From Candidatus Poribacteria bacterium (lineage in GTDB: Bacteria > Poribacteria > WGA-4E > JAJDTR01): DNA of 64,000 nt. The translations under genes and the position numbers were made by a program. This document shows positions 15,982-31,781 of this stretch, one piece after another. Every line of letters begins with the position of its first letter. Within the stretch, counting starts at the first letter, position 1. Location: contig CBDCTK010000002.1 in assembly GCA_965222225.1 (NCBI GenBank), positions 5,472,001 through 5,536,000 on the forward strand, given 5' to 3'. The notes beneath the pieces are model-generated. The model was given only the letters and a program-made list of their open reading frames with translations, did not search any database and was not told the DNA's origin.

Positions 15982-16174
15982 TAAGAGCCTGTTTGAATAA
16001 TAGGTGTAAAGCCATTTTTAGACATTTGAGGCGGGCATCTTCAAGTTTTTGTTGTCGCCTGCTATACACCTGTGGGATCTCTATCGCACTCACTATCCGA
16101 TCGCTTGATCCTCGCTGGAGCTTTGGCGTAAAGCGAGTGACGTCGCTTCATATGAATTTTCAAACAGGTTCTTA
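15982..16174. mobile_element. ~190 bp non-coding MITE-like element with IS5-like terminal inverted repeats
   Basis: TAAGAGCCTGTTTGAA (15982-15997) and TTCAAACAGGTTCTTA (16159-16174) form a 16 bp inverted repeat with 1 mismatch; TA(A) flanks; no credible ORF inside. Confidence 0.65.
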
Positions 16175-17006: not shown

Positions 17007-17861
17007 TCAGGTGAAGCATTCATCAAAAAATCTTATGAAAATCTCATCATCTTTTCTGCGATTATATTTCCAGCAAGACTCCATGATATACAGTGGCAGC
17101 CACTTCTTGCTGTAGTGATGATGCGTTCCGTAGAATGACCTCTTGACACAAGCCCAAAACGACTCGATGGTGTTGGTGTGAGTTACGCCGTCCTCAGAAA
17201 CATATCTCTCTTGGTGATGGATAACATGTCTTTCGATATCTTCGTCCAGACTATTGTAAGAGCGAAATTCATCAGTCATAAGAATAGACTCATCGGGTGA
17301 GACATTGCTAAGGATGAATTCTCTGATATTTTCACCAGATAGAACCTTCATGAATTTAGCAACCACCCGACCGCCTCTCTCGACTACGCCGATGACGGGA
17401 GATTTATTTGTGCCTCTACCTCTCTTAGATTTTGCTCTGGGTTTGCCGCCGACATAGGTTTCGTCCGCTTCAACTATCCCTTTCAGCAATTCATCACTAT
17501 CACTCATTTTCTCACGGAGGCGCATTGCCATATACCAAGCGGACTTTTGATTCATGTCCAAGTCACGAGCAAGCTGACAACTCGATATGCTTTTCTTGGC
17601 ATTGGAAAGAATTGAGATAGCCAAAAACCATTTCTGGAGAGGTATCTTGGTACCATGGAAGATGGTTCCTGCTGTAGCCGAAAAGCTAGATTCACAATCG
17701 TAGCAATTCCAACCAGTAGTAATGTCGTTTTTGTTCTTGCGTCCAACTTTTTCACTGCCACAGTGGATACAGCAAACACCGTCCTTCCAACGTTTTTCCT
17801 CTATAAATCTGAGACAAGATTCTTGATTTGGAAACTCTTTCATAAGATTCAAAATGTCCAT
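17007..17861 (-). mobile_element. IS1595-family (ISXO2-like) DDE transposase
   Basis: CxxC..CxxC zinc ribbon, GTIFHGTKIPLQKWF, VEADETYVGG, LMTDE and HTNTIESFW motifs. Element ends not confidently located. Confidence 0.93.
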
Positions 17862-17961: not shown

Positions 17962-19354
17962 CTACAAGCTACTAATTCCGTAATGATTTTCTTCTATCAA
18001 TAATCGACTCCGTATCATAGCGTCGAATATCAGCAATACTTCTTCAATCATTTTGTATGGAATGCAACGTTGAGCGATCATAGCTAGGAGATTACTTGTG
18101 AACACGTAACTCCCATCTGGAGTTTCCCCGTCCTCCGGAGCAGTGGATAATAGCAATGCGATCCATTGCGATAGCATTGCCGTATCTGACAATGTTTCAT
18201 CGCTGCTTCCAATCTTCCGCGCAATATGCTCCCAGAACGTTGGATGGAGGCGCGTGCGATGTCTGCTAATGAGAAGGAACATCAGCTTCGGATGATTTTC
18301 CAAATACCGATTTACCAACCACCAAGATAAAATTCTGTCGCTATGTTGTAACTGCCCCGTGCCAAACAATGGGGTTAAGCGCCCACGCTTGTCAAGCCAC
18401 TCAATCCAATCTGGATGTGACGCGCTTTTTGTAAAGAATTCGGTCTTTGTTTCATCTTCAAGGGCATGAGCGATTATTCCCTCATCCTCTTCGTTCAGTT
18501 CTTGAGGCGGCTTATCGGCAATCGCAGAAATTTCACGCTGCCAACCAACCATTCCACGTCGTACATAATCGGCAAGTTTGCTGATTGCCTTGTCAAGTTC
18601 GCTATGATCATTCTCGTCATACTGCGGGTACGGAATCGTCTCAATTTTCAAATGCTTCCAGCGTCGATGGTCGGCTATGCTTTTGCGCACCAATGCGTAA
18701 CGCTGCAATCCTTCTCTTTGCGGTGGCAAGGCGCGTACCAAATAGTTCATGACCGTGTCGCTATGGCTGTAGCCGACAAAGAGAATCGTGAAATTATTAT
18801 ACAATTCAACGAGAAAACGTCTTGCCCATCCCTCGTTATAAATACGCGCGACCAAAATCTGTGTCCGTAAGTATCATCTCGTCGGCATTGGCGATGGATC
18901 CATGAACATGAACAATCCCGTTGAACTTACGTCCCAAAGGCAACGCAGGGGCACAGAATACCGGTGGTGTATCGTTGAATAGTCCCCCTGCTGCTTCCTC
19001 AAACAAAATATCAAAGTTTGTGGTAACCAGATGAACCGGTCCATCTTTGTGATAGAGTCGCAGAAGATCTTGATGAAGTGATGTCGGTTTCAAGCCTTCG
19101 GGAGAAAGCACTTTTTTTGCAATGTCATAAATCTCCACACCATCATCGTGCAAGCGTCCGAGGAATTGCTCAAGATTTTCTTTTTCGTCTCTGACTTTGT
19201 TGCTGCGTTCCGCTATTACCTTGGTTAAGGAACAAAAGTTGGGCAGACAAGCAGGTTTACCCATTGAAACACCAGCCCCAGCGAACACTACGAGATTATT
19301 ATCACGCAAGGCATCTAATAGTGGTTTGGGAAAGTCAACATTGGCTAGTTTCAT
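17962..19354 (-). pseudogene. SIR2-domain (SIR2_2, Dsr1/DUF4020-like) protein, frameshifted and probably 3'-truncated
   Basis: VVFAGAGVS, TTNFD and HVHGS in 18836-19354; LFVGYSHSD in 17962-18855. One extra T near 18838 breaks DFGRAYL|NEGWARRFL. The ORF ends next to the IS1595. Confidence 0.85.
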
Positions 19355-19395: not shown

Positions 19396-19903
19396 TCATC
19401 CAGTTCCTTGTGAATCGTGTCTAACGGCCGAACATGAGCAGTATTTATTGATGGCTTTACGGGTGGGTTCGCCGATGTAAAGGGATTCGCCCTTGCCCTC
19501 TTGATCTGTCTTACTGGAGTGAATTGCGAGCGTACTTTTCACGTCCTCGATATTGACCGCGACCGCGGTCCCGACCGTCGCGACGAATACCTGACAATGT
19601 TCGAGTGGTGATCGCTCCAACGATTTGTCGATTAACATTCGTGGACTGCCATTTGACGGCATCCACCACTTGTGAGATCGTTGCGGGCGATTTGCCTGAC
19701 TCATGAAGATGGGTAAGATACTCGGCAAGCACCGCATCATTCAATTCACGCGGGCTGACCACAGTGGATAGCCAAGTATCCCATTTGGTCAACGCCCGAC
19801 CATAGGCTGCGAGCGTGTTTTTCGAGACGCCATGCTTAATCAATTCCTTTGTCGAATCACTGATAGCAACTGAGCTTTCCTGTTTTACTGCTAATTCGTT
19901 CAT
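19396..19903 (-). pseudogene. Cre-like tyrosine recombinase, internally deleted and truncated
   Basis: N-terminal SAM-like part (VSKNTLAAY...YLTHLHESGKSPATIS...LSGIRR) joined out of frame to IHSSKTDQEGKG. The catalytic R box and the C-terminal HxxR/Y boxes are absent. Confidence 0.85.
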
Positions 19904-19914
19904 GATATATCACC

Positions 19915-20733
19915 TCATTTCAAACGGTACCCGTTCTTATCCCAAGTGGAAACAGCACCGTGACCATACTCATTGATTCCAAGCGAGACGCGAGCTACAT
20001 TGTCCGTTTTGCCATAAATGTCAACGCGACCACCGTGTTCATCATTTTGCATAGTTACAAGGGGAGATTTATCATCTCCACAAACCGTGACTCCGATTCC
20101 GCTAGAGGATAACTTCACACCCCGATTATAGTTAGCTCCCAATACACTCACACTACTGTCAGAACCACTGGTCGCATCCATTAGAATCATGGAATCAGTC
20201 AGAAGAGATTCGCTTTCAGGATTATGCCACCTAGCACCACCGATTTGAATGCTACCTGCTCCTCGCATGACAATCCTCGCATCATCGTTAGTAATCTCCC
20301 ATAAGGAGACTTTTCCCGCTAAACCACCAGCCTCACTCGTCAGCTCAACTAGCCCCCTACCGCGTGCGGAAAACACGGCGATAGATCCCGCACTTTGCTC
20401 GAACTGCCTCAGTCTGATTTTCCCTGTCCCGTCTTTAGAGAGAACTCTTAATGACGTGCCGTACTCGTTGCACTCAAAGACAATCGACCCAGACTTATGT
20501 ATAGCATCAGTAATTTGAAGCGAGGCGGTATCGCTTCTGCTGGCAAGTTTGCCCGCGTGTTCCAGCACCACGCTTCTATTATCGGGTCCCGAAATAACTA
20601 GGCGATTGCAAACAATCTCATCGAATGTGTCACGTTTCGCTGTGAGCGGCGAAACACACAACCCGATGGCAAGTCCGGCAATCCCAATCACTGCGCCAAA
20701 GACCATATAGCTAAATTTCTGCTTTGTGTTCAT
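19915..20733 (-). CDS. Secreted beta-repeat family protein, copy 1
   Basis: Probable start MNTKQKFSYMVFG (MSM start at 20739 is also possible). Signal peptide, FDEIVC, repeats such as DEHGGRVDIYGK, and end GAVSTWDKNGYRLK. Confidence 0.8.
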   Translation of the reverse strand: MNTKQKFSYMVFGAVIGIAGLAIGLCVSPLTAKRDTFDEIVCNRLVISGPDNRSVVLEHAGKLASRSDTASLQITDAIHKSGSIVFECNEYGTSLRVLSKDGTGKIRLRQFEQSAGSIAVFSARGRGLVELTSEAGGLAGKVSLWEITNDDARIVMRGAGSIQIGGARWHNPESESLLTDSMILMDATSGSDSSVSVLGANYNRGVKLSSSGIGVTVCGDDKSPLVTMQNDEHGGRVDIYGKTDNVARVSLGINEYGHGAVSTWDKNGYRLK

Positions 20734-20946
20734 TGACATTCTCCCATTTGGTTTTGAAATTGAGTGACGGAAAATAGTCACAAGTTAAGTTTGTATAAGA
20801 CGTATTGTAAAATTTTTGCAGGCCAAATGTCAAGGTATGTACCTGTCTCACAGATATGTTGAGAATACCTTGCGAATATGCTATACTTGCCACGTTTTTG
20901 CGAGAGAAGGTATGTTTTGTACTATGGGACGACGGAAACGAAAAAA

Positions 20947-21732
20947 ATGAGCACCCTCACCGATGACCACATTCGCCAATTCAACCATGAGGGATACTTG
21001 GTATTCGAAGGTCTGTTAGATGAGAACCACAACCAGCGTATCATGCGTGATATAGACCAACTCATGGAAGATCGGGAGAATCCAAACAAACCGGCGATTC
21101 CGATGCGCTACCCCGACCTAGGTCTCTTGACCTCGGAACCTGTTATTGTGGATCGGGTGGCATCTCTCATGGGAGGAGATCCATTTGTTCACCATCATAT
21201 TCATGCCACTTGCCACATGCCCGGTGAACCCGGCGTTGCTTGGCACCACGATTACGAGCAATTGCCCCAAACGAATCGTTCGCACCTTATGGTGCACGTC
21301 TTTATGTATCATTCCGGATTGAATGGCGAAGTTGGGGACCTGCTCGTGCTACCGGGATCGCATAAGAAAATCATGAATGGAGATGCGTTCCGGCAATTTG
21401 GATGTGCCGACCTTCCAGAATCTCGCGCCATCAATGACCTTGCCCCTGCATCCGTTGTCATTGTCCACTCCGCGCTTCAGCATGCGCGTCGTGCCAAACC
21501 CGCTAACCTCGGATCCAAACGCTATTTCGTCGACACATCCTATTGCCAATATGGAATCGTTTGGCCCACAATCCGTCGGTTCCAGCAGTATAACAACATG
21601 GCACTGGAACTCGGGTGGGATCGAAATGGGAAATACGCATTTCTCTATGAAGAAGGTCATTTCTTTTTCAAAGAGGAGCACCAAGCAGCGTTCGAAAGTA
21701 GCAATCAGGGCAGTTTGGCAGTGAAACTCTAA
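20947..21732 (+). CDS. Phytanoyl-CoA dioxygenase (PhyH) family 2OG-Fe(II) oxygenase
   Basis: EGYLV, WHHD, LLVLPGSHK and distal H (LQHAR) motifs. Confidence 0.88.
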   Translation: MSTLTDDHIRQFNHEGYLVFEGLLDENHNQRIMRDIDQLMEDRENPNKPAIPMRYPDLGLLTSEPVIVDRVASLMGGDPFVHHHIHATCHMPGEPGVAWHHDYEQLPQTNRSHLMVHVFMYHSGLNGEVGDLLVLPGSHKKIMNGDAFRQFGCADLPESRAINDLAPASVVIVHSALQHARRAKPANLGSKRYFVDTSYCQYGIVWPTIRRFQQYNNMALELGWDRNGKYAFLYEEGHFFFKEEHQAAFESSNQGSLAVKL

Positions 21733-21916
21733 CGGGTAGTCGTGCAAATACACGAATCAATGGCCATACGCTTCAAAAATACCCTCATCGTCGGAGTCAA
21801 TAGTCTGATCCGGCGTAAGTGACCGCTTCTAGCAGACAAACCACCTTACTCAAAAATGCGTTTGGCTAAAGCGAGGAGGGCTGTGATTTAAGTGTGGAAG
21901 CTAAAGAGAGATAGAG

Positions 21917-23458
21917 ATGCCCAATTTTGACTTTATTCCTGAAGCACCGACCCCAGTTGGATTGAAAAAACAGCTATTCATCGACGATTACGTTGTCGCG
22001 GAAAAAAGTAATGTGAGTTTAGAGGTGGGACAGGCGAAAAAACACGGTGTCGTGATGGAACCGACACTTTTGACCGAATTTCAGTCCGGCGCGATTCACG
22101 ATGGGCCAGATGGCGGTTTTGGCTTTGAATCGCATTTCTGTTGGTTTTTCTCGCCTCACTGGGATTCGGACAAAGCTATGTTTCGCCTGTGGTACATGGC
22201 TGGCAAAAGGGCGGGTACCGGACTATCGTATGCGGAATCATCTGACGGTTTCAACTGGACCAAACCAATGATTTCCAAGGGTGGGAAGAGCAACCTTGTT
22301 ACGTGGAACTCACCTGTTCCAATTCTCCGTCGTAATGAAAGTGTTGACCTGCTTGATATCGGGCTAGATGGTGCAACCGTCACCATTGATCCGAGTTTGG
22401 AATTCGGTTCACCTGAGAAGTTCAAAATCGCGTTTTATCCGAACAGCGGTGGCATTGATGGCAAGACGCGTTTGGGATATTCAGCCGACGGAATCCATTG
22501 GAACCTATACCACGATGGTTACCCGGTAACGGAACGCGCAGCGGACACAAACAACCAGATACAGTGGGACCCGCTTACCGAACGCTACCTGCTGCACTGT
22601 CGTCAGGATTTTGAAGGCGGCGGTGGAATTGGGGAATACCGCGGCGTACGCATCATGGAACATTCAAAAGAGAACGACCTTCTGAACCATCCCACTGCAT
22701 GGAAAACCCTCACGACATTTGTATTAGACGATCCGGACAAAAGCGTGATTCCGGACACCAAAACACCCGTTTATCAGATTCACACCTTCCCGATGTCGTA
22801 CTATGAAGGCGTGTGGTTTGGCTTAACGGATATTCTGGCTGCAACCAACAAGCATGTTACCGATGGTGACCAGGATTACCACACTTCTCACGAACGGGGT
22901 GTATGGGAATTCTACATGGCGCCATCGCGTGATGGGGTCAACTACGATTTCACCGTGGCGGTCTATCCGCGCAAACCCCTCATCCCGCGCGGTCCATCCG
23001 GCAGTTTCGACAAGGATTGCGTGCGTCCGCCATCAAACATTATTACGCACAACGATGAGCACTGGATCTATTATCTGGCGACAAACGAACGCTGGGGATG
23101 TCATCGGTGGGATGCGCGCCTTGCGCTTGCCAAGCTGCGGCTCGACGGTTTCTTCTTTCTCGAAGCGAAGGAGAAGCCGGGAAGGGTGGTGACTCGGCCG
23201 TTCCTACTTGAGGGTGATAAGCTACAGGTCAACGTTGATGCATTGGATGGCTATATGAAGGTCGAGGTGCTTGAGACATCCGGTGAACCAATCCCCGTCT
23301 TCTCGGGCGATTCAGCCAAGGTTTATCGCGGGTTCGACAATCTGCGACTTGAACCAATCTGGAAGGGGAATGCCGGTTTGTCATCGTTGCGAGGCAAGGA
23401 AGTGCGGCTCAGGTTCAATTTGAGCAATGCGAAGTTGTACGCTTTTCAAATTTGCTGA
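21917..23458 (+). CDS. Putative five-bladed beta-propeller glycoside-hydrolase-like protein
   Basis: KQLFIDDY, Asp-box-like repeats (SSDGFNW, SADGIHW, SRDGVNY), LRLDGF and KLYAFQ; paralog of 31774-33435. Confidence 0.7.
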   Translation: MPNFDFIPEAPTPVGLKKQLFIDDYVVAEKSNVSLEVGQAKKHGVVMEPTLLTEFQSGAIHDGPDGGFGFESHFCWFFSPHWDSDKAMFRLWYMAGKRAGTGLSYAESSDGFNWTKPMISKGGKSNLVTWNSPVPILRRNESVDLLDIGLDGATVTIDPSLEFGSPEKFKIAFYPNSGGIDGKTRLGYSADGIHWNLYHDGYPVTERAADTNNQIQWDPLTERYLLHCRQDFEGGGGIGEYRGVRIMEHSKENDLLNHPTAWKTLTTFVLDDPDKSVIPDTKTPVYQIHTFPMSYYEGVWFGLTDILAATNKHVTDGDQDYHTSHERGVWEFYMAPSRDGVNYDFTVAVYPRKPLIPRGPSGSFDKDCVRPPSNIITHNDEHWIYYLATNERWGCHRWDARLALAKLRLDGFFFLEAKEKPGRVVTRPFLLEGDKLQVNVDALDGYMKVEVLETSGEPIPVFSGDSAKVYRGFDNLRLEPIWKGNAGLSSLRGKEVRLRFNLSNAKLYAFQIC

Positions 23459-23667
23459 CCATTACGCTATGAACTAAAGCAAGATTTCTTGAATTGGGAG
23501 TCCTATCGCACAAAGATCTCTATCGCGCTCGCTTTCCACTCGCTTGATCGGTTTCGGTAGCGTCCGGTAAACGGCGGAGATTCTTGGTAGAAATAGTTAT
23601 CGGAAGTAAGTTGGTTTTGACAACTCACAAGCTATCTCTGTCTAACAGGCGAAAGGAATAACAACAG

Positions 23668-24117
23668 ATGGATTTTCACTACATCAATACGAATGACGGG
23701 TATCACGAAAGAGATACGTATAAGATATGGCTAAATCTCGGCTATGCCTTTACCAACGGGGAACAGCTTTACGGGGCAAAACTTGGAACGCTTCAGCCTG
23801 GCGATTTGGTATTCATGTATGTTTCAGGCAAGGGAATCAAGGCTGTGGGGATGGTTATCAATGAATGGGACGGTATTGAGTACCGCCAACCGATAATTTC
23901 AAGCCCATCCGCCAACAACGAGTTTCGCATTCAAATAAACTGGTTCATCGTTCCTCCAGATGATTTTGTGCCTTCTTCGAAAGTGAAGGAGATTATGGGA
24001 TACGATTTTGTGCAGACTTGCGCACGCATCAACAAACGCGACGCAGCCGAGAAACTCCTCCGATATATGCTGCAGATGCTAGAATTATGCGGGTACAGCT
24101 TGACGTGGGACAGTTAA
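23668..24117 (+). CDS. EVE/PUA-like domain protein
   Basis: LQPGDLVFMYVSGKGIKAVG...FRIQINW resembles the PUA-like domains fused to restriction/HNH nucleases; AAGGA RBS. Confidence 0.6.
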   Translation: MDFHYINTNDGYHERDTYKIWLNLGYAFTNGEQLYGAKLGTLQPGDLVFMYVSGKGIKAVGMVINEWDGIEYRQPIISSPSANNEFRIQINWFIVPPDDFVPSSKVKEIMGYDFVQTCARINKRDAAEKLLRYMLQMLELCGYSLTWDS

Positions 24118-24168
24118 TTTTTGATTTGCGTGGGAATTAAGAATCGGAATTAAGAAAAGGAGAAGATT

Positions 24169-24567
24169 ATGCGAAGGAAAGGAGCGTTGTATGCAGTGAT
24201 TGGCGGTGTTGTTGGGGCAGTTCTAACGATGGTGTGCTGCTTGTTCATGCCATTCGTGGCGCAAAGTCAATCTGAGGTTGCGCCCGATGGGGTATTCGGC
24301 CAGATAACCTGTAGGGGGATGAAGGTGGTTGATTCGGAGGGCAAACTGGGTGTGCTTATCTTCAACGGTGATTACGGTGGGCGGGTCGACGTGTTTGGCA
24401 AAGATGGTAATCCCCGTGCCGGTATGCTCATCACCGAACATGGGGGGCAGCTCGCCGTTTTGGACAAAGATCACAAAGCCGGTGTGGTGATGGCCGTCAC
24501 CAAATATGGGAACGGCGCGGTAAACACGTGGGATAAGAACGGGTCTCCTTTGGCTACATTGAAGTGA
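24169..24567 (+). CDS. Secreted beta-repeat family protein, copy 2
   Basis: AGGAG RBS; MRRKGALYAVIGGVVGAVLTM...AQ leader; FGQITC; GGRVDVFGKDG; ends GAVNTWDKNGSPLATLK. Confidence 0.85.
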   Translation: MRRKGALYAVIGGVVGAVLTMVCCLFMPFVAQSQSEVAPDGVFGQITCRGMKVVDSEGKLGVLIFNGDYGGRVDVFGKDGNPRAGMLITEHGGQLAVLDKDHKAGVVMAVTKYGNGAVNTWDKNGSPLATLK

Positions 24568-24669
24568 GAAGTGGGTGATTCGCGTGATTTTAGGTAATCG
24601 GTAGTAATACCATTTCTCTAAATTGCAAGTGCATTGATTACGTGGATCAAGTAAATAAACTTGCGTGGA

Positions 24670-24729
24670 GCGGAGTAAGACGCCTCGTCTCCGCCGCGTA
24701 AAGTCGGCGGGGCAAGATGCCTCGCCTAC
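24670..24729 (-). repeat. REP-like hairpin pair (GTAG type)
   Basis: Reverse complement of 24706-24729 is GTAGGCGAGGCATCTTGCCCCGCC (GTAG plus hairpin). A degenerate copy lies at 24670-24692. Confidence 0.5.
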
Positions 24730-25683
24730 GGGGTTTGGTATGAAGGTCAACAGTTGGTATGGGTCGTGTCATAATAGTTTAATTGAAAAACACTGTATGC
24801 ACTGTTATTCAAGCGAAATGGTATAAGTCGATTTTTTAATTTGGTTCTTCATAGTTAAATGCGGGATTGAAATTTGCTGCATGAAGGCGCGTTTGCCCTA
24901 TGGGTTCAAATTGCTTGCTATAATTCCCAAGTTTTGTGATTGAAAACTTCACACATGTATAGTATGATATAGCCGGTTAGCGATGGTCGCGACCTTATTC
25001 CTGCCAGCGGTATGCCGCCGGGACGAAAATCCCATGTGTCTCGTATACATTTTGTTCTGCTGCGCATCCGCTGTCCCAGCGCTGTCAAAGGCTTCCGCGC
25101 TCACTGGAGAAGTCAAAACGCCTTCAAACCGTTGCGCTGAGAACACAATCCGGTCACCCTTGCGCGCGGTTCATTGCCGTGAAAATAGGAAAAAACAACA
25201 GAGTAAGATGTTGAATCTATGTCTAAATCGTCTGTCTTGTTCAACTGTTCTTGCCCCCTGTTCAGTGGAGGCTTTGGTGGCAAATGAGTGAATCTCGGCG
25301 GCGTCCGGTCATTGCGCCTGACGCGGTTTTTCGGCAGTCATTTCAGCACCGCGGGCAGAGGGGTCAAAGTTATAATCGCAGAAAATCACAGTATTTCACA
25401 CGCTCAAATACGAGCAAAAATCATGCACGAATCCAAGCTACGACACGCTTCAATGCCCGTCTCGAGTCTTAACGCATCGACTGCAATGGAGACTACGGTA
25501 GTCGGATCAAACGGGTGGATAAATCAAGTGAACGAACAGGCAACGCGATATGGATCCTGGGGCGATAGGAATCCCACAGCAAAGGCGATAGATATCCCAT
25601 AGAAATCTCCTCCGTATCACGACACTCGGGATCTGTAACGCGTCTGGTAAACGGCGGAGATATTTAGCAGAAATACAGGTGTC

Positions 25684-25766
25684 ATGACGAATTCACGTCC
25701 CGATTTAATTCTAATCATGTGCGATCAGATGCGGTGGGATGCTGCCGGATTCGCCGGGAGTTCAAC
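25684..25766 (+). pseudogene. Duplicated 5' end (~28 codons) of the sulfatase gene at 30333
   Basis: 75/83 nt identical to 30333-30415, with a perfect 47 nt core (25711-25757 = 30360-30406); MTNSRPDLILIMCDQMRWDAAGFAGSST. Confidence 0.9.
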
Positions 25767-25881
25767 AATATCCTTACCAAGGCGATTATCCAGATCCGCT
25801 GTTAAATTGTCCTTATGCGAGTATAGGTTGGTTTTCTGGGTTTTCGTTCAGTCTCAAAACCATGACAAAAGGAGAGCTATT

Positions 25882-26346
25882 ATGATAAAACGAGAGTTAG
25901 TTTGTGCGTCGGTGATAGGCGGTATTGTTGGGGCAGTTCTTACGATGGCGGCGGGGTCGTTCTCGCCACTGGGCGCGCAAAATGAAGTGAGGGATGCGGA
26001 GTTTAGAAAAATAACATGTACCGCGCTCAGGGTGGAAGGTGCGGACGGAGCAAGAGCCGTGACCCTAGGCGCTGTAGGAAATGGCGGGAGTGTTTTCGTG
26101 TTTGGCAAGGACGGAGAAATTGGCGTGGGTATGACCGTCAATAAAAATGGCGGGTACGTTCGCGTACACGACAAGAACCTAGAATCAGGCGTGAGTATGA
26201 GCGTTGATGAACATGGCGGGTATGTTCGCGTGGAGAGCAAGGACGTAGAAATACTTGAAGGCGTAAGGCTGAGTGTGGATGAGCGTGGCGGGCGCGTTGA
26301 CGTGTACGGCAGAGACGGAGAATATAACGAGCTAACACCCAAGTGA
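25882..26346 (+). CDS. Secreted beta-repeat family protein, copy 3
   Basis: True start MIKRELV after an AGGAG RBS (the ORF track fuses it to the sulfatase remnant). SPLGAQ, FRKITC, four GGxVxV repeats; ends DGEYNELTPK. Confidence 0.85.
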   Translation: MIKRELVCASVIGGIVGAVLTMAAGSFSPLGAQNEVRDAEFRKITCTALRVEGADGARAVTLGAVGNGGSVFVFGKDGEIGVGMTVNKNGGYVRVHDKNLESGVSMSVDEHGGYVRVESKDVEILEGVRLSVDERGGRVDVYGRDGEYNELTPK

Positions 26347-26357
26347 GGTGATGAATC

Positions 26358-26432
26358 ATGAATGAGTTGGCAGTTCGAAACGAAAGCGTACTGGCTATCA
26401 GTGTTGCGTTGTGGATAATTACAAAGGTTTAG
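26358..26432 (+). pseudogene. Tyrosine-recombinase 5' remnant (24-codon ORF)
   Basis: MNELAVRNESVLAISVALWIITKV*; the first 15 residues match MNELAVKQESSVAIS of the 19903 recombinase. Confidence 0.75.
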
Positions 26433-26447
26433 GAATGGGAGGATGTT

Positions 26448-27047
26448 GTGCGAAGGAAAGAGTTGCTGTTTGGAATGTTTTGCGGTGCTGTCGGGGCGAT
26501 TCTAACAACGGCAGTGGGGTTGTTCACGCCTCTCGTAGCGCAGGATGAATTGAGCGATGTGGCATTCGGAAAGATAATCTGTAGGGAAATTGTGATGGTT
26601 GATTCGGATAATAACCTCTGTGTTAGAATGGACGCCGAACGATATGGCGGAAGCATATATGTGAACGGCAAAGATGGCGACTCCAGTGTGAGCATAGGCA
26701 TAGATAAAAATGGCGGAGACATCACCGTGCATGGTACCGGTAATAAAATGGCGTATATGGAAATTGACGACGAAGGTGGCAGGGTCGGTGTGTTTGGCAA
26801 TGGTGGTGATCGCGATAATAGCGGGAGCGCAAGTCTGAGTATCGGCGAAAATAGAGGCAGGATCGGCGTATTCAACGAAGATGGAAAAGTCTGTGCGCTC
26901 ATGGTCGCATATGTTGATAGCTATATAAATGGCGGATTGATCGAAGTGTTTGGCAGCGATGGCAAACTCCGTGCAGTTATGGGCGCAGGTGTACATGCCG
27001 GGGTGCTCGCCGCGTATGGCAGCGATGGAACGACGGTTATAAAGTGA
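26448..27047 (+). CDS. Secreted beta-repeat family protein, copy 4
   Basis: GGAGG RBS and GTG start; TPLVAQ, FGKIIC, about six GGxI/VxV repeats. Confidence 0.85.
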   Translation: MRRKELLFGMFCGAVGAILTTAVGLFTPLVAQDELSDVAFGKIICREIVMVDSDNNLCVRMDAERYGGSIYVNGKDGDSSVSIGIDKNGGDITVHGTGNKMAYMEIDDEGGRVGVFGNGGDRDNSGSASLSIGENRGRIGVFNEDGKVCALMVAYVDSYINGGLIEVFGSDGKLRAVMGAGVHAGVLAAYGSDGTTVIK

Positions 27048-27058
27048 GGTGATGAACC

Positions 27059-27230
27059 ATGAACAGATTGGCAATTAGACAAGAGAACGCACTGGCTATT
27101 AGTGATTCCACGAAGGGTTTGATACGTGCCGGCGTCTCGGAGAACACGCTGCGGGCTTAGCGTTGCGCTTTGCTGAAGCTGAACAGGTGGCTAAGTGACA
27201 CGTGGAACATTTCCGATCAACTGAGCGGTT
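27059..27230 (+). pseudogene. Tyrosine-recombinase N-terminal remnant
   Basis: MNRLAIRQENALAISDSTKGLIRAGVSENTLRA*RCALLKLNRWLS aligns with MNELAVKQESSVAISDSTKELIKHGVSKNTLAAYGRALTKWDTWLS. Confidence 0.85.
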
Positions 27231-27309
27231 AGCGACGGCGATAGAAAATCCCGTGCGATAGAGCTCCCATAGCTAATCCCTCAAGCGGCCGAATAAGGAG
27301 GGTGAGGCA

Positions 27310-27357
27310 ATGGGGGATGCGGTTATAGGCGGTTGTACGGGTGCAGTATTAACAATG
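27310..27357 (+). pseudogene. Remnant of a further beta-repeat family leader
   Basis: MGDAVIGGCTGAVLTM matches AVIGGVVGAVLTM of copies 2, 3 and 5. Confidence 0.55.
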
Positions 27358-27670
27358 CGCGTATCTTATGTGTTGTGGCGTGCCCCAAGGAAAAATGCGA
27401 CGTAACGAAAGTCTTGTGAGAGAGGGTTTGGGATGTCACAGTGAAGGAAGATTCGCAGTGGTTGCAACTGAAACCTTTTCTGATTTTCTTATTCCCGTGT
27501 CTAACGTTAATAGAGCCACAGTGAATACAACAGGGCGAGTCTCAATATCCGCATTTTTATTGGTAAAATAAACTAACGTATGATATGATTCGCCCACTTT
27601 TGACGAAAGTAGTCAAAAGATTTAAAAATAGACGAACTATACGATTTTACATTCAGATGGAGAAAGTACA

Positions 27671-28030
27671 GTGTATTACAAAATTACTGTAATCTTACAA
27701 CCTCAACCTGAAGGTGTATATACAGTAACCTGTAAAGAGTTACCCGAACTTATAACTGAAGGCAGAACAATAGAAGAAGCATTATATAATGTGGAAGATG
27801 CTTTTTCTGCAACTTTAGAAATATATGGAGAGTTTAGCCAACCTCTGCCTCGGGAAATTATGTTCGCGGAAGCTCCAACTGGAAACAACTCGGAAATAAA
27901 CTTGCTTGAATCAAAAAAATCTAAGGCAAAGTCGAAGTTTAGGTTTCAAACTCTTGACCCCCCATTAGAACACCCGGGCTTATGTTTTCGGGCGGCTTCT
28001 GTGACCCAAATTATGGGATATGAGATATAA
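27671..28030 (+). CDS. hicB: HicB-family antitoxin
   Basis: EGVYTVTCKELPELITEGRTIEEALYNVEDA motif; overlaps hicA. Confidence 0.88.
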   Translation: MYYKITVILQPQPEGVYTVTCKELPELITEGRTIEEALYNVEDAFSATLEIYGEFSQPLPREIMFAEAPTGNNSEINLLESKKSKAKSKFRFQTLDPPLEHPGLCFRAASVTQIMGYEI

Positions 28031-28229
28031 CGAGGTTAAGCGAAAACTAAGGCGATTAGGCTGTCAAGAGTTAAAATCATCAGGCAAAGGTTCACACCGA
28101 AAATGGTATAATCCCGACACGAATAAGAAGGCTACAATTCCATATAACAACAGGGAATTAGCCAAGGGAACCCTCCGTGCCATAATGAAAACATTAGCAA
28201 TTGACGGTAAGATGTTCGAAGATGCTTAG
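28020..28229 (+). CDS. hicA: HicA-family toxin
   Basis: 69 aa and basic, with GKGSHRKW and ELAKGTLRAI motifs. Confidence 0.9.
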   Translation: MRYNEVKRKLRRLGCQELKSSGKGSHRKWYNPDTNKKATIPYNNRELAKGTLRAIMKTLAIDGKMFEDA

Positions 28230-28302
28230 CCAATTCTATTCTAATTTTCAGCGGATACTCCACTAAAGAGGTCCGTTTTTTTGTGTAAACTCTCAATTTT
28301 AC

Positions 28303-28430
28303 TTAACATAACACAGGTTGCGGCCTATAACAAAGAAACCGAGTTTTTGGTTCGCGTTCGCTGCATTTTAGGTAAATTGGTCTGATTTTCACCAATCTCG
28401 CGATTCCATGTCGGAAAAAACTCGGTCTCT
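28303..28430. repeat. REP/MITE-like element with internal inverted repeat
   Basis: AGAAACCGAGTTTTT (28334-28348) and AAAAACTCGGTCTCT (28416-28430) are inverted with 1 mismatch; the left part is repeated at 6934-6992. Confidence 0.65.
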
Positions 28431-28492
28431 CTGCCTCTGTCGAACAATGGTGACAACTTGGGTTAGAACGTATGAATGAAAAGGACAAGGTT

Positions 28493-29011
28493 ATGCGAAG
28501 GAAAGAGGCGTTGTTTGCAGTAATAGGCGGCGTTGTCGGGACAGTATTAACGATGACGGCAGGTTCGTTCTCGCCATTGGAAGCGCAAAATGAAGTGAGA
28601 GAGGTGTATTTCGATGAGATAAGGTGTAGGCAGATAGTGGTGGATTACCCCAACGGTATTCCTGCGATATTGCTATCCGCGGTCGAGGATGGCGGGGCAT
28701 TGGTTATTATGGGCAACAATGGCGGCGGTGTGTTTATTGAGAGCAATAAAACAGGCGGGAGTGTCAGGGTGCGTGGCAAAGATGGCAAAGGCGAGGCAGG
28801 CATGAACATTAACGAACATGGGGGAGGGTATATCGGCACGGTTAACAAACATGGCAATGGCGGTGTGCTTATGGACGCCGACGAATATGGAGGAGATGTC
28901 ACCGTGTATGGTAACGACGGCTCTGCCCGTGCGAGTATGAGCACCTACGACGATGGAGGGTACGTCAGCGTGTACAAAAAAGATGGCAGCCTCCGTGCAA
29001 CTTTGAAGTGA
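28493..29011 (+). CDS. Secreted beta-repeat family protein, copy 5
   Basis: MRRKEALFAVIGGVVGTVLTM, SPLEAQNEVR, FDEIRC, five GG repeats; ends DGSLRATLK. Confidence 0.85.
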   Translation: MRRKEALFAVIGGVVGTVLTMTAGSFSPLEAQNEVREVYFDEIRCRQIVVDYPNGIPAILLSAVEDGGALVIMGNNGGGVFIESNKTGGSVRVRGKDGKGEAGMNINEHGGGYIGTVNKHGNGGVLMDADEYGGDVTVYGNDGSARASMSTYDDGGYVSVYKKDGSLRATLK

Positions 29012-29026
29012 AGGGAGAGTGAATCC

Positions 29027-29070
29027 ATGAATGAGTTGGCAATCAAGCAATAGGAATCAATGATCAGTGA
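29027..29070 (+). pseudogene. Tyrosine-recombinase 5' remnant
   Basis: ATGAATGAGTTGGCAATCAAGCAATAG...ATCAGTGA translates to MNELAIKQ*. Confidence 0.7.
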
Positions 29071-29083
29071 AAGGAGAATCATC

Positions 29084-29542
29084 GTGAGGTACCGAGAGAA
29101 ATTGGGATATATGGTTTTGGGCGGAATCTTGATGCTGGTTGGCATGTTAGCTGCGGGGTTGTTTTCGCCGCTGGGGGCGCAAACTGAATCGGATGTCACT
29201 TTTGGGAAGGTAACCTGTGGGGAACTTAAGGTGATGGATAGGTACGGGCGTACAGCGGTGGTTATAAAGCCTTATTCACATGGCGGGATGGTTCAAGTGA
29301 ATGGCACGGACGAAAATTCATTCGTGCTTATGGCGATTGGGACACGGGGCGGGATGGTTCGAGTGCTCGGCAAGGACGACAATTCCGAGGCGCTTATGTG
29401 GATTGACGAACGAGGAGGGGAAATGGTCGTGTGCGGTAAGGACGCATTTACAAAGGCGACAATGGGAGTTGACGGCGAACAGGCCGGGTTCGTGCTCGTT
29501 CGCGGCCAAGACGGAGAATATAACGAGCTAACCCCCGAGTGA
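29084..29542 (+). CDS. Secreted beta-repeat family protein, copy 6
   Basis: AGGAG RBS and GTG start (MRYREKLGYMVLGG), SPLGAQ, FGKVTC; ends DGEYNELTPE. Confidence 0.85.
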   Translation: MRYREKLGYMVLGGILMLVGMLAAGLFSPLGAQTESDVTFGKVTCGELKVMDRYGRTAVVIKPYSHGGMVQVNGTDENSFVLMAIGTRGGMVRVLGKDDNSEALMWIDERGGEMVVCGKDAFTKATMGVDGEQAGFVLVRGQDGEYNELTPE

Positions 29543-29553
29543 GGTGATTAATC

Positions 29554-29628
29554 ATGAACGAGTTGGCAGTTCGAAACGAAAGCATACTGGCTATCAGTGT
29601 TGAGTTTTGGATAATTACAAAGGTTTAG
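29554..29628 (+). pseudogene. Tyrosine-recombinase 5' remnant (24-codon ORF)
   Basis: MNELAVRNESILAISVEFWIITKV*, a near copy of 26358-26432. Confidence 0.75.
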
Positions 29629-29643
29629 GAATAGGAGAATGTT

Positions 29644-30030
29644 ATGCGAAGGAAAGAGTTGATGTTTGGAGTGTTTTGCGGTGCTGTCGGGGCGATTCTA
29701 ACAACGGCAGTGGGGTTGTTCACGCCTCTCGTAGCGCAGAATGATGTAATGGATGCGAAGTTCGATACGGTAAACTGTAGGACGTTAATTGTGGAAGATG
29801 AGGATGGTAAACACGATGTGGTTATCTTTGGAGGCAGCGTTATCGCGCATGGGGAAGGCGAGGGGCGTGTGAGGATGGGCGCCGGCGTCATTGCTGGAGA
29901 AGCTGGTGGTCATGTCATAGTGTATGGACGCGATGAAAAAAACGTCGCGAAGATGGCGGCTGAAGAAGATGGCGGTTTTGTTTCCGTGTTTAGTAAGGAC
30001 GGAACAGGAAACATCTTAATGCCGAAGTAA
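29644..30030 (+). CDS. Secreted beta-repeat family protein, copy 7
   Basis: Leader almost identical to copy 4; FDTVNC; GGHVIVYG and GGFVSVFSKDG repeats. Confidence 0.85.
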   Translation: MRRKELMFGVFCGAVGAILTTAVGLFTPLVAQNDVMDAKFDTVNCRTLIVEDEDGKHDVVIFGGSVIAHGEGEGRVRMGAGVIAGEAGGHVIVYGRDEKNVAKMAAEEDGGFVSVFSKDGTGNILMPK

Positions 30031-30041
30031 GGTGATGAACC

Positions 30042-30206
30042 TTGGATAGATTGGCAATTAGACAAGAGAACGCAATGGCTATCGGTGGTTCCACGAAGGA
30101 TTTCATTCAAGCCGGCGTTTCGGAAAACTCGCTGCAGGCGTATCGTCGGGGGTTGTTGGAACTGGACAAGTGGATAACGACGGCGGGACAGTTTCAAATG
30201 AACTGA
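30042..30206 (+). pseudogene. Tyrosine-recombinase N-terminal remnant
   Basis: LDRLAIRQENAMAIGGSTKDFIQAGVSENSLQAYRRGLLELDKWI aligns with the 27059 and 19903 sequences. Confidence 0.85.
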
Positions 30207-30332
30207 GCGGATAGATCGGACGAGCGGACAGCTAGTGCGAAAGCCATCTCACTTCATTGACCATCCTATAGCTTCAAGGGCTTAACTGACCATTAATCAC
30301 TAACCGCTAGACACTTAACAAAAATAGGCATC

Positions 30333-31781
30333 ATGGCGGATTCGCGCCCCAATTTAATACTAATCATGTGCGATCAGATGCGGTGGGATGCTGCCGGATT
30401 CGCCGGAAGTTCCACGGTTCAGACTCCTCACCTCGATCGGTTGGCAGCGAACGGTGTTTGCTTTGAAAACGCTTATTGCGCATCCCCGGTTTGTTCACCT
30501 GCTCGCGCGAGTTGGTTGAGCGGTCTATATCCGCATGCCCATCTTCAACTGCGAAATTATGGTTCCGCTAGGATGGGCAAGTTCGGTTGCTATCTACCTC
30601 CCGATTGCATAACTATCGGTGATGTTCTCAAAGCTGCCGGCTACCGCTGCGGCATGGTAGGTCCATGGCATCTGGGCGAAGACCACAATCCACAACACGG
30701 GTTCACCGATTTCTGGCGCGCCTATCGTTATCAGGGCGATTACCCGGATCCGTTGTTTGATTATTTTGAACAGGAAGGGGTTCCAAACCTCTATCTCCCG
30801 GACGCGCCCGGGATGACGCTCTATGAAAATACGCTAGAATTTGGTACAATAGACGACCCTCGGCAGCAACGAACCACTTGGACGGTTGACCGGGGTATCG
30901 AATTCATCCAGGGGGCAGATGGAGCGCCATTCTTTCTATTTGCCAGTATCAAGGACCCGCATCCCAGAATCTTGGTACCGCCCGAGCTTCTAGAACACTA
31001 TCCGGAAGATCAGATACGACTCTCTTCCTCCTTGCGGGATTCACTTGAGGGAAAACCCGAGTTTCAGAAAAGGGGAAAATTTCGCATTCGTCCGACGGTA
31101 ACCGACGAGCAATTTCGCCGGATGATGGCTTACTATTACGCCCTCATTACGCACATTGATGCTGAAGTCGGGCGTATCCTCAAAACGCTTGAAGAACGAA
31201 ATCTTATTGACAACACGATAGTCGTCTTCATTAGCGATCACGGTGAGTTGCTAGGCGACCACGGCTATGTGGAGAAATGCCTAATGTATGAGGCGTCGGT
31301 ACGAGTGCCGTGCCTAATCTCATGGCCCGAGCAGTTGCCGAGCGGGGCCCGCGTCACTGCGCCGCTCGCCGGTGTCGATTTAATGCCGACGTTGCTCGAC
31401 CTCGTAAATGAAGTTCCGCCAACACCAATTGATGGGCACTCCGTAGCAGAGGCGATTCTGAATGGACGAGAGCCTGAGCGCCAGCCGATCTTCGCCGAAA
31501 TCGCCAGTCTTAACGCGATTTATCATGGTGCTCAAGAGCCGGAACAGCTTGCTGCCCACGTAATGGTGCGTGATGAGAATTGGAAATACATTTGGAACCG
31601 TTTCGATATCGACGAACTGTACGACTTGAATGCAGACCCGGGTGAGATGAAAAATGTCGCCAGCGATTCCGATCAGCGCAATCGGGCTGCATTGATGCGT
31701 GAGCAAATCGTCGAGATGATTTGCCATACAGGTCCCGGCCCCTACGAATGGTGTTTACTTGAAAGAGAAAAGAATGAGTAG
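30333..31781 (+). CDS. Sulfatase (Cys-type, formylglycine-dependent)
   Basis: PNLILIMCDQ, CSPARAS (CxPxR), SDHGE and ELYDLNADPGEMKN motifs. Confidence 0.95.
   Translation: MADSRPNLILIMCDQMRWDAAGFAGSSTVQTPHLDRLAANGVCFENAYCASPVCSPARASWLSGLYPHAHLQLRNYGSARMGKFGCYLPPDCITIGDVLKAAGYRCGMVGPWHLGEDHNPQHGFTDFWRAYRYQGDYPDPLFDYFEQEGVPNLYLPDAPGMTLYENTLEFGTIDDPRQQRTTWTVDRGIEFIQGADGAPFFLFASIKDPHPRILVPPELLEHYPEDQIRLSSSLRDSLEGKPEFQKRGKFRIRPTVTDEQFRRMMAYYYALITHIDAEVGRILKTLEERNLIDNTIVVFISDHGELLGDHGYVEKCLMYEASVRVPCLISWPEQLPSGARVTAPLAGVDLMPTLLDLVNEVPPTPIDGHSVAEAILNGREPERQPIFAEIASLNAIYHGAQEPEQLAAHVMVRDENWKYIWNRFDIDELYDLNADPGEMKNVASDSDQRNRAALMREQIVEMICHTGPGPYEWCLLEREKNE

Follow-up and report, generated by a model that had tools for sequence, protein, structure and literature searches.

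A 64,000-nucleotide (nt) stretch of a Candidatus Poribacteria genome (contig CBDCTK010000002.1, positions 5,472,001 to 5,536,000; referred to here as the window) contains an array of paralogous genes for variable, predicted exported proteins (p genes; p1 to p7 in the window), interspersed with truncated copies of a gene for a Cre-like tyrosine recombinase (int). The array looks like a worn-down fossil stack of two-gene units and not like a working new gene-shuffling machine, and the window holds nothing that could now recombine unaided. The explanation that we prefer, at a probability of roughly 55%, is that p-recombinase units built up in tandem at island hotspots, that int decayed by deletion while p was retained, and that units were duplicated and lost by way of their conserved flanks. 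The genome holding the window is designated G000, and C2 is the contig used for its coordinates.

The original prediction, drawn from the letters of the window, had described seven p paralogs, one leader remnant, and six int starts, and all of these were recovered (Table 1). The paralogs are all open reading frames (ORFs), the leader remnant at 27310 was found by both a repeat search and a leader search, and the int starts at 19903 (minus strand), 26358, 27059, 29027, 29554, and 30042 lie 11 to 15 nt past the stop codon of a p gene. Every int copy in the window is truncated and lacks the catalytic domain, so that none of the six is open, versus seven of seven p genes; the absence of an intact recombinase from the window was likewise confirmed. 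Since the p genes stayed open, they are probably under selection. The most complete remnant retains a match at 19511 to 19903 to Phage_int_SAM_1, the SAM-like domain at the N terminus of phage integrases (E = 1.1e-6; 29.2 bits, with the cut-off at 22.3). The predicted head-to-tail units of p plus the 5' end of int also held, with the ribosome binding site (RBS) of the next p gene directly behind the stub in three cases (26358 before p4, 29027 before p6, and 29554 before p7). The proposed spacer consensus GGTGATNAAYC fits five of the six junctions, but the 29027 junction deviates from it. Positions 26289 to 27232 and 29485 to 30214 are a segmental duplication (87% and 81% identity), and because of this single event the stubs at 26358 and 29554, and those at 27059 and 30042, are not independent of each other. 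Counting p2, the window records five independent int truncation events. The listed junctions were covered by short-read contigs of run X3, which may be the source sample, with 0 differences. Terminators and promoters inside the array did not exceed shuffled expectation.

The linkage of p and int extends beyond the window. A motif resembling the int start (at most 4 mismatches, at most 45 nt past the stop codon) was found behind 8 of 24 p-family ORFs, versus 111 of 8672 other ORFs of at least 100 amino acids (aa) in the genome, and the association exceeds chance. Further diverged int starts were found by eye or by tblastn behind the p genes B3, D2, and p7, and about 11 of the 24 p genes of G000 have int or an int remnant behind them. 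G000 also encodes seven intact recombinases of the int family. Two stand directly behind p genes, at C2:2334179-2335135 (318 aa) and C2:4353489-4354421 (310 aa); the first belongs to the locus A unit (p of 208 aa, int, and a second p; C2:2333829-2335768) and the second to a unit with a p gene of 147 aa (C2:4353489-4354881). Between loci A and B, the DNA of the int genes shows 76% identity. In the intact p-int-p layout, int starts 5 to 18 nt past the p stop codon and the next p starts 5 to 20 nt past the int stop codon, with spacers of 6 nt and 20 nt, respectively, at locus A. Upstream of the p genes B1 and E2, just the last int codons (..ARFKDGK and stop) survive, 12 nt before the p start. The other five intact recombinases form a sister lineage whose partner upstream is not p but a gene for a cytoplasmic-looking protein of 382 aa. 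Units of this kind lie at C2:458790-461380 and near C2:1313824-1317633, 3334495-3336655, 3989320-3991410, and 4161009-4163710, and the five copies are 80 to 95% identical. In four of five copies, about 60 nt past the int stop codon are kept, beyond which the flanks diverge, and this divergence may mark the end of the element. A repeat of about 225 bp that resembles a miniature inverted-repeat transposable element lies between int and the 382-aa gene (C2:459917-460144) and has dozens of copies in G000 and in the other genomes of the genus. A conserved gene of about 172 aa that looks like a lipoprotein gene and has no match in Pfam recurs at three places, a few genes downstream of p-int units (C2:4352224-4352745 and 4826073-4826591, and in G005 at L004:2870-3349).

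The intact recombinases have the two-domain architecture of Cre-type enzymes, with Pfam matches to Phage_integrase (E = 2.1e-18) and Phage_int_SAM_1. The best relative of solved structure is Cre (PDB 7rhz; E = 1.4e-12), with residues 70 to 315 aligned to Cre residues 72 to 339. In the printed alignment, the motifs LLRISE, ASKT, GHSLRVG, GRW, and PAHY of the recombinase at C2:2334179-2335135 fall at the catalytic R, K, H-x-x-R, W, and Y positions of Cre, the Cre numbering being the one that we take to be standard. Scores against the NCBIfam models for XerA/integron integrase (77 bits; cut-off, 220) and XerD (81 bits; cut-off, 330) were low, and PADLOC returned no match to int. Intact members of the family outside the window could act in trans, but no target site was found. 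A tree of 44 rows placed all Poribacteria recombinases in one clade (support, 99/96) in which the p-linked copies of loci A and B were sisters and the p-linked copy of G018, a genome of another family, branched deeper; because only three intact p-linked rows are in the tree, no order of events can be claimed. A literature search on tyrosine recombinases of Poribacteria, or on such a system, returned no relevant work by title or abstract. The codons for ERGAIARF near the 3' end of int (C2:2334185-2334210, with homologous sequence in other copies) form a 10-4-10 near-palindrome, GAACGGGGCG CAAT CGCCCGGTTC, immediately upstream of the stop codon, its arms matching at 9 of 10 positions; it may be a by-product of codon content.

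The original prediction had proposed that cassettes were stacked by repeated recombination at or near the 5' end of int. The break points do not support this. The int remnants of the window are about 0, 24, 49 (two copies), 140 (two copies), and 320 nt long, and no int 3' tail was found within the window. Elsewhere in G000, 3'-only tails start at int residues 197, 256, 268, 271, 284, and 292, two more abut the starts of B1 and E2 (eight 3'-only remnants in all), and 3'-only remnants are, genome-wide, at least as frequent as 5'-only stubs. At the 24-nt stub between p5 and p6, the break point is identical in G000, G002, and G007. This stub is therefore an old inherited scar and not a product of recent recombination, which further counts against recent events at the int 5' end. 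The break points fit deletions bounded by neighboring functional genes. Serial insertion (or duplication) followed by decay, which had been offered as the alternative, fits better. Fixed gene order and content, the absence of any intact recombinase, and random truncation points had been named together as signs of simple duplication and decay; the first two do not apply, because content differs between relatives and intact int genes exist, but the truncation points do vary.

A common recombination site was not found either. Repeat searches and a palindrome scan detected no attC-like, lox-like, or inverted-repeat site common to units or loci, and the only repeated sequence between cassettes is the int 5' coding stub. 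The integron- or shufflon-like reading is thus mostly unsupported, although its premise that attC sites are absent holds. Palindromes of the form 13-N(6-8)-13 (at least 11 of 13 matches) at six loci included no common site, a scan that leaves room for more degenerate sites. No invertible promoter or flanking inverted repeat was consistent over four loci; inverted repeats in the window merely reflect the opposite orientation of p1, p2 to p7 being co-oriented. Several candidates were rejected. The lox-like 13-8-13 palindrome that bounds the locus A island on its left (C2:2329039) is an unrelated repeat with relatives at places that have neither int nor p. The sequence GCGATAGRNATCCCA belongs to an element resembling repetitive extragenic palindromes (REP), has 80 exact copies in C2, and is absent within 1.5 kb of the other nine p loci, so it was dismissed as an attachment (att) site. 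Copies of this REP-like element, which carries the motif GCGATAG, lie at window positions 16073, 23495, 25562, 25585, and 27255, and G004 and G006 carry the element in their empty hotspot site as well. The p leader was dismissed as an att site as well, with just one solo leader in the entire genome. Read evidence consisted of Logan contigs of four of nine runs (X3, X5, X6, and X1); contigs cannot show rare variants, and stretches that they leave uncovered prove nothing. Alternative joints were seen from 24140 to 28478 (X6 and X1) and from 29568 to 27289 (X5), with short sides of 29 to 31 nt; they match arrangements of other species (e.g., G005) or other paralogs and were not counted as variation within the population.

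These data bear on the possibility that the array is an active cassette system, in which an intact Cre-like recombinase acting in trans at the leader or at the stop/start junction excises, inserts, and reorders cassettes, much like an integron with a different site. Such a system would account for the catalytic residues retained by intact family members, for array content that differs between species, for the sharp loss of identity inside the p5 leader between G000 and G005, and for the solo leader at the other end of the HicAB block. It is quite unlikely, however, given the break points of stubs and tails, which are not fixed, the single solo leader, the lack of a common palindrome or inverted repeat, old stubs inherited across species, and contig arrangements only of kinds known in other species; moreover, in G003 and G008 the HicAB block has no flanking leaders.

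The array lies between conserved borders, PhyH and a 513-aa gene on the left and the sulfatase and a 558-aa gene on the right, which were present and syntenic in nine of nine other genomes of the genus. Content of the gap between the 513-aa gene and the sulfatase was compared across ten genomes, including G000, and varied between relatives. The gap was empty in G004 and G006 (about 0.2 to 0.3 kb). It held a 149-aa gene without p in G001 (3.2 kb), the 149-aa gene and HicB without p in G008 (2.7 kb), and the same two genes with two further ORFs, by eye a putative restriction-modification pair, in G003 (4.5 kb), also without p. In G009 it held the 149-aa gene, one p, and one stub (2.2 kb); in G002, three p genes and stubs (3.2 kb); in G007, three p genes and a stub (3.2 kb); in G000, six p genes (6.9 kb); and in G005, five p genes (8.9 kb). 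In total, p genes were present at this hotspot in 5 of 10 genomes, at 0 to 6 per genome, and the site was empty in 2 of 10. A second island (C2:2329021-2336172) contains the intact p-int-p unit, other small genes, and two int tails; its site was empty in four of nine relatives (G005, G006, G007, and G009) and held other content in G001 and G003. A homologue of the locus B unit was found at a different chromosomal place in G005.

Divergence between units was high. The first 45 nt of int had a median identity of 72% (34 pairs) compared to 27% for the shuffled control, and p bodies within G000 showed 46% identity versus 45% after shuffling. This pattern suggests that the units would already have been diverged when they were brought together. 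Between species, p bodies gave no DNA alignment (25 to 50% per 60-nt window), leaders were 73 to 85% identical, and the p proteins were only 37 to 45% identical. Around p5, G000 and G005 share 95% identity upstream, 82% within the leader, and about 52% over the body. Either p bodies are replaced while their flanks are conserved, or the pressure on them to diversify is very strong. Stubs common to several species indicate scars that predate the species splits, and the orthologue of the 30042 stub adjoins the sulfatase in G002, G007, and G009 (77 to 80% identity). The nearest relatives of window p types were found at other loci (B1 and A2 for p3, B2 for p6). An order of p types also recurs: a p gene of the MRRKE/MKAKE-leader type, int or a remnant, and a p gene of the KYREKLGY-leader type were found in succession at loci B and E, in the window, and at the same hotspot in G002 and G007. 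Plain tandem duplication in place, in which one ancestral p-int pair multiplied and diverged with no mobility ever, is hard to reconcile with int stubs that are about 72% identical, as neutral sequence, next to p bodies at random level, with window p types closest to other loci, with a first hotspot empty in two species and a second empty in four, and with the displaced homologue of locus B in G005. The clear segmental duplication inside the array and the several scars common to species would fit it, but we regard it as very unlikely.

The p proteins share a basic and hydrophobic N-terminal leader followed by an invariant Cys, and their repeats of about 22 aa (66-nt period) have the form GG-x-V-x-V-x-G-K-D-G. 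No family was assigned to them by Pfam, NCBIfam, or PADLOC; p7 had a DUF4064 match below the Pfam cut-off, and the p genes otherwise had nothing in Pfam at E ≤ 0.1. A p profile matched at least 352 database proteins (E ≤ 1e-5); among the 120 matches listed, none had a Pfam domain, and the sole name shown was "hypothetical protein." The profile was present in 124 of 151 sampled genomes of the phylum, with the highest counts in this genus (8 to 25 per genome) and in genus g4 (22 to 27). An AlphaFold model of p5, built on a 21-sequence alignment, was confident, with a pLDDT (predicted local distance difference test) score of 89.5, and shows one N-terminal helix followed by twelve strands in hairpins. 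Foldseek returned no match to this model at E ≤ 0.001. The nearest folds were engineered single-layer OspA sheets, MORN proteins (MORN1), and phage tail parts (TM-scores, 0.35 to 0.58); the best matches, to OspA sheets and MORN1, scored 0.35 to 0.48. From sequence and model, p is predicted to be an anchored or secreted beta-hairpin repeat protein. The original prediction of an exported variable protein is supported: p is highly variable and is predicted to be exported or membrane-anchored. The p genes define a large unnamed family across the phylum that evolves far faster than its surroundings and may have a part in interactions with the host or with phages.

Among public sequences, the recombinase loci were closest to metagenome-assembled genomes of Candidatus Poribacteria. 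Int or a stub follows a p gene in the same genus (G002, G005, and G009), in genus g4 (G015 and L071), and in family f3 (G018, G035, G109, G130, G039, and G072), and the order therefore recurs in two Poribacteria families. Among 80 loci with int relatives (one genome per species), p-profile matches occurred at 6 of 11 from Poribacteria and at 0 of 69 from other phyla. Conversely, of 20 p loci sampled in other Poribacteria families, four had int or a stub behind p, all among the 11 loci of f3 (0 of 8 in f2 and 0 of 1 in f5). This distribution raises the possibility that int by itself is the selfish element, inserting with about 12 nt that include an RBS behind the stop codon of a resident p gene, often between adjacent p genes, and then decaying, with p as an old chromosomal target. 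Such an element would explain why p is phylum-wide and usually lacks int, why int is wedged so tightly between p genes (6 and 20 nt at locus A; 14 and 5 nt in the p-p-int-p-p layout of G109, from the other family), why the 5' ends of int resemble one another far more than do the p genes preceding them, and why p and int both end in AAG-stop directly before an RBS; a p-p junction of just 13 nt with no trace of int, upstream of B2, is also consistent with it. No orthologous filled and empty pair was found for any single junction, though, no terminal repeats or core site could be defined, and, to our knowledge, an element consisting of an ORF only has no precedent. Sister int lineages with other fixed upstream partners (e.g., the 382-aa gene, in five copies) argue instead for two-gene modules, and we consider the int-only element unlikely.

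For these reasons we favor the build-up of p-int units at hotspots followed by deletion of int. In the sequence of events that we envisage, diverged p units and small cargo (the HicAB pair and the Dsr1-like sirtuin) would accumulate at a few intergenic hotspots. Ordinary deletions would then remove int, leaving the 5' stubs seen here and the 3' tails seen at other loci, and would be halted where the upstream p gene or the RBS of the downstream gene would suffer. Between conserved leaders and junctions, the p repeat bodies would diverge or be replaced very fast, and leaders and stubs may serve as passive homology for unequal crossing-over that duplicates and deletes cassettes, as the one duplication in the array suggests. 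If this is correct, the window shows how a sponge symbiont gathers accessory genes for surface proteins that persist after their recombinases have decayed.

Several observations weigh against this explanation. No att direct repeats, direct-repeat borders, or circular form were found, so the mobility of the units can be read only from locations that are patchy and that differ. Sequence similarity between the two empty hotspot sites did not exceed shuffles, and no common attB was found; the intergenic DNA at both is too diverged for element borders to be placed. With 16 of the 20 sampled p loci in other families lacking int, and p present throughout the phylum, p may be a resident family and not cargo. 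The p types recur in one order, which may reflect a larger conserved block, a functional operon, or a functional set of different p proteins. G000 contains no near-identical p-int units and thus no sign of recent movement. Finally, three of the five independent deletions removed nearly exactly the whole of int, which is tidier than purely random deletion would be without selection or time.

A bolder reading, which we regard as doubtful, is that the units represent a minimal class of mobile cassette, previously undescribed, in Poribacteria: a Cre-like recombinase translationally coupled to a hypervariable surface-protein gene, or homing to its stop codon, whose stacking at hotspots would build and reshuffle the surface repertoire. 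The window would then be a fossil record, with the intact copies at C2:2334179-2335135 and C2:4353489-4354421 still live. If true, Poribacteria would hold a Cre-type counterpart to integrons, along with new simple recombinases that have natural targets.

Among the neighbors of the array (Table 1), the gene order p-int-SIR2 was also found in G002, so this module predates the species split. The transposase ORF that bounds the left block is presumably IS1595/ISXO2-like, and the partner of HicA is presumably HicB. The duplicated sulfatase start upstream of p3, where the piece YQGDYPDPL is also repeated, places a block of about 4.6 kb, from p3 to the last stub, between a dead and a live sulfatase start. 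The HicAB block is 96% identical to that of G005. From 27283 to 28589, a segment that includes the HicB/HicA pair, the solo leader, and the leader of p5 has 95 to 96% identity to G005, where core flanks are 88% identical, and the HicB core is 90 to 94% identical to G003 and G008; the high identity of the segment suggests recent exchange or strong constraint. Separately, a segment of about 4.2 kb (L054:756-4987; C2:2321756-2325987) occurs in several copies per genome, at 73 to 88% identity, in all ten genomes of the genus and probably represents a multicopy gene or a further mobile element.

Table 1. Features of the array and its neighborhood (window positions)
Feature	Position	Strand	Details
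Transposase ORF	17007-17861	-	Bounds left block
Dsr1-like SIR2 gene, frameshifted	17962-19354	-	Downstream of p1-int; NCBIfam Dsr1 E = 6.5e-22 and 2e-17 in two frames, both far below cut-off
Longest int remnant	19396-19903	-	About aa 1-117, plus aa 160-220 in a different frame
p1	19915-20781	-	275-288 aa paralog
513-aa gene	21917-23458	+	Left hotspot border; no Pfam match
149-aa gene	23668-24117	+	First hotspot gene; unassigned family; no Pfam match; in G001, G002, G003, G008, G009
p2	24169-24567	+	132 aa; only junction RBS remnant behind stop, zero int codons
Decayed duplicate of sulfatase 5' end	25671-25800	+	88% identical to 30320-30415
p3	25882-26346	+	154 aa
int stub	26358-26406	+	About 49 nt
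p4	26448-27047	+	199 aa
int stub	27059-27232	+	About 45 codons with stop, then about 35 nt common to the 30042 copy
Leader-only p remnant	27310-27357	+	Sole solo leader found in genome
HicB-like and HicA toxin-antitoxin pair	27671-28229	+	Inside array; HicA_toxin PF07927, E = 1.7e-14
p5	28493-29011	+	172 aa; used for structure prediction
int stub	29027-29050	+	24 nt; identical break point in G002, G007
p6	29084-29542	+	152 aa; KYREKLGY-type leader
int stub	29554-29603	+	About 50 nt; duplicate of 26358 stub
p7	29644-30030	+	128 aa
int stub	30042-30214	+	About 45-54 codons; start mutated to TTG
Sulfatase, intact	30333-31781	+	Right hotspot border; Pfam Sulfatase E = 1.1e-53; synteny

The array was compared with integrons, Cre/loxP, the switching loci of Mycoplasma, SSV-type integrases, and island accretion. 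Like an integron, it consists of co-oriented small genes, mostly promoterless, with content that varies among relatives, a toxin-antitoxin pair inside, and a tyrosine recombinase. Unlike an integron, it lacks attC-like imperfect palindromes between cassettes, and in place of a single divergent intI at the head with attI and Pc, each cassette has its own co-oriented int downstream. The recombinase is Cre-like and scores far below the integron-integrase cut-off. Membership in the integrons was rejected on all of these points. The Mycoplasma vsa/HvsR and vpma/Xer1 loci and the R64 shufflon with Rci likewise combine clustered variable exported proteins, conserved 5' ends, and adjoining tyrosine recombinase genes. 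In those systems, DNA is inverted between inverted sites and there is a single expression site, whereas p2 to p7 are co-oriented, each has its own start and RBS, and no inverted repeats were found; with neither inverted sites nor segments in both orientations, a shufflon or invertible switch was rejected. The intact recombinases share the domain order and catalytic residues of Cre, but the array has no common 13-N(6-8)-13 palindrome, and int is multicopy, chromosomal, tied to a surface-protein family, and dead in the window. In SSV1-type archaeal viruses, attP lies inside int and integration splits int into N and C parts, which recalls the int 5' and 3' fragments scattered here beside cargo. 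A split integrase of that type should break at one fixed position and leave two halves that complement each other. The int break points differ and no 3' halves lie in the window, so this candidate was also rejected. The remaining comparison is with islet accretion, in which integrative elements are stacked at one site and leave integrase pseudogenes and derivatives that lack an integrase. For the array, neither att direct repeats nor a tRNA target was found, the units measure just about 0.5 to 1.6 kb, and most of them include a p gene spaced from int as in an operon. It shares with islet accretion several co-oriented units, each with an intact or remnant tyrosine recombinase gene, variable content at a fixed hotspot, accessory cargo such as a toxin-antitoxin pair and a sirtuin defense gene, and the state in which only the cargo is intact.

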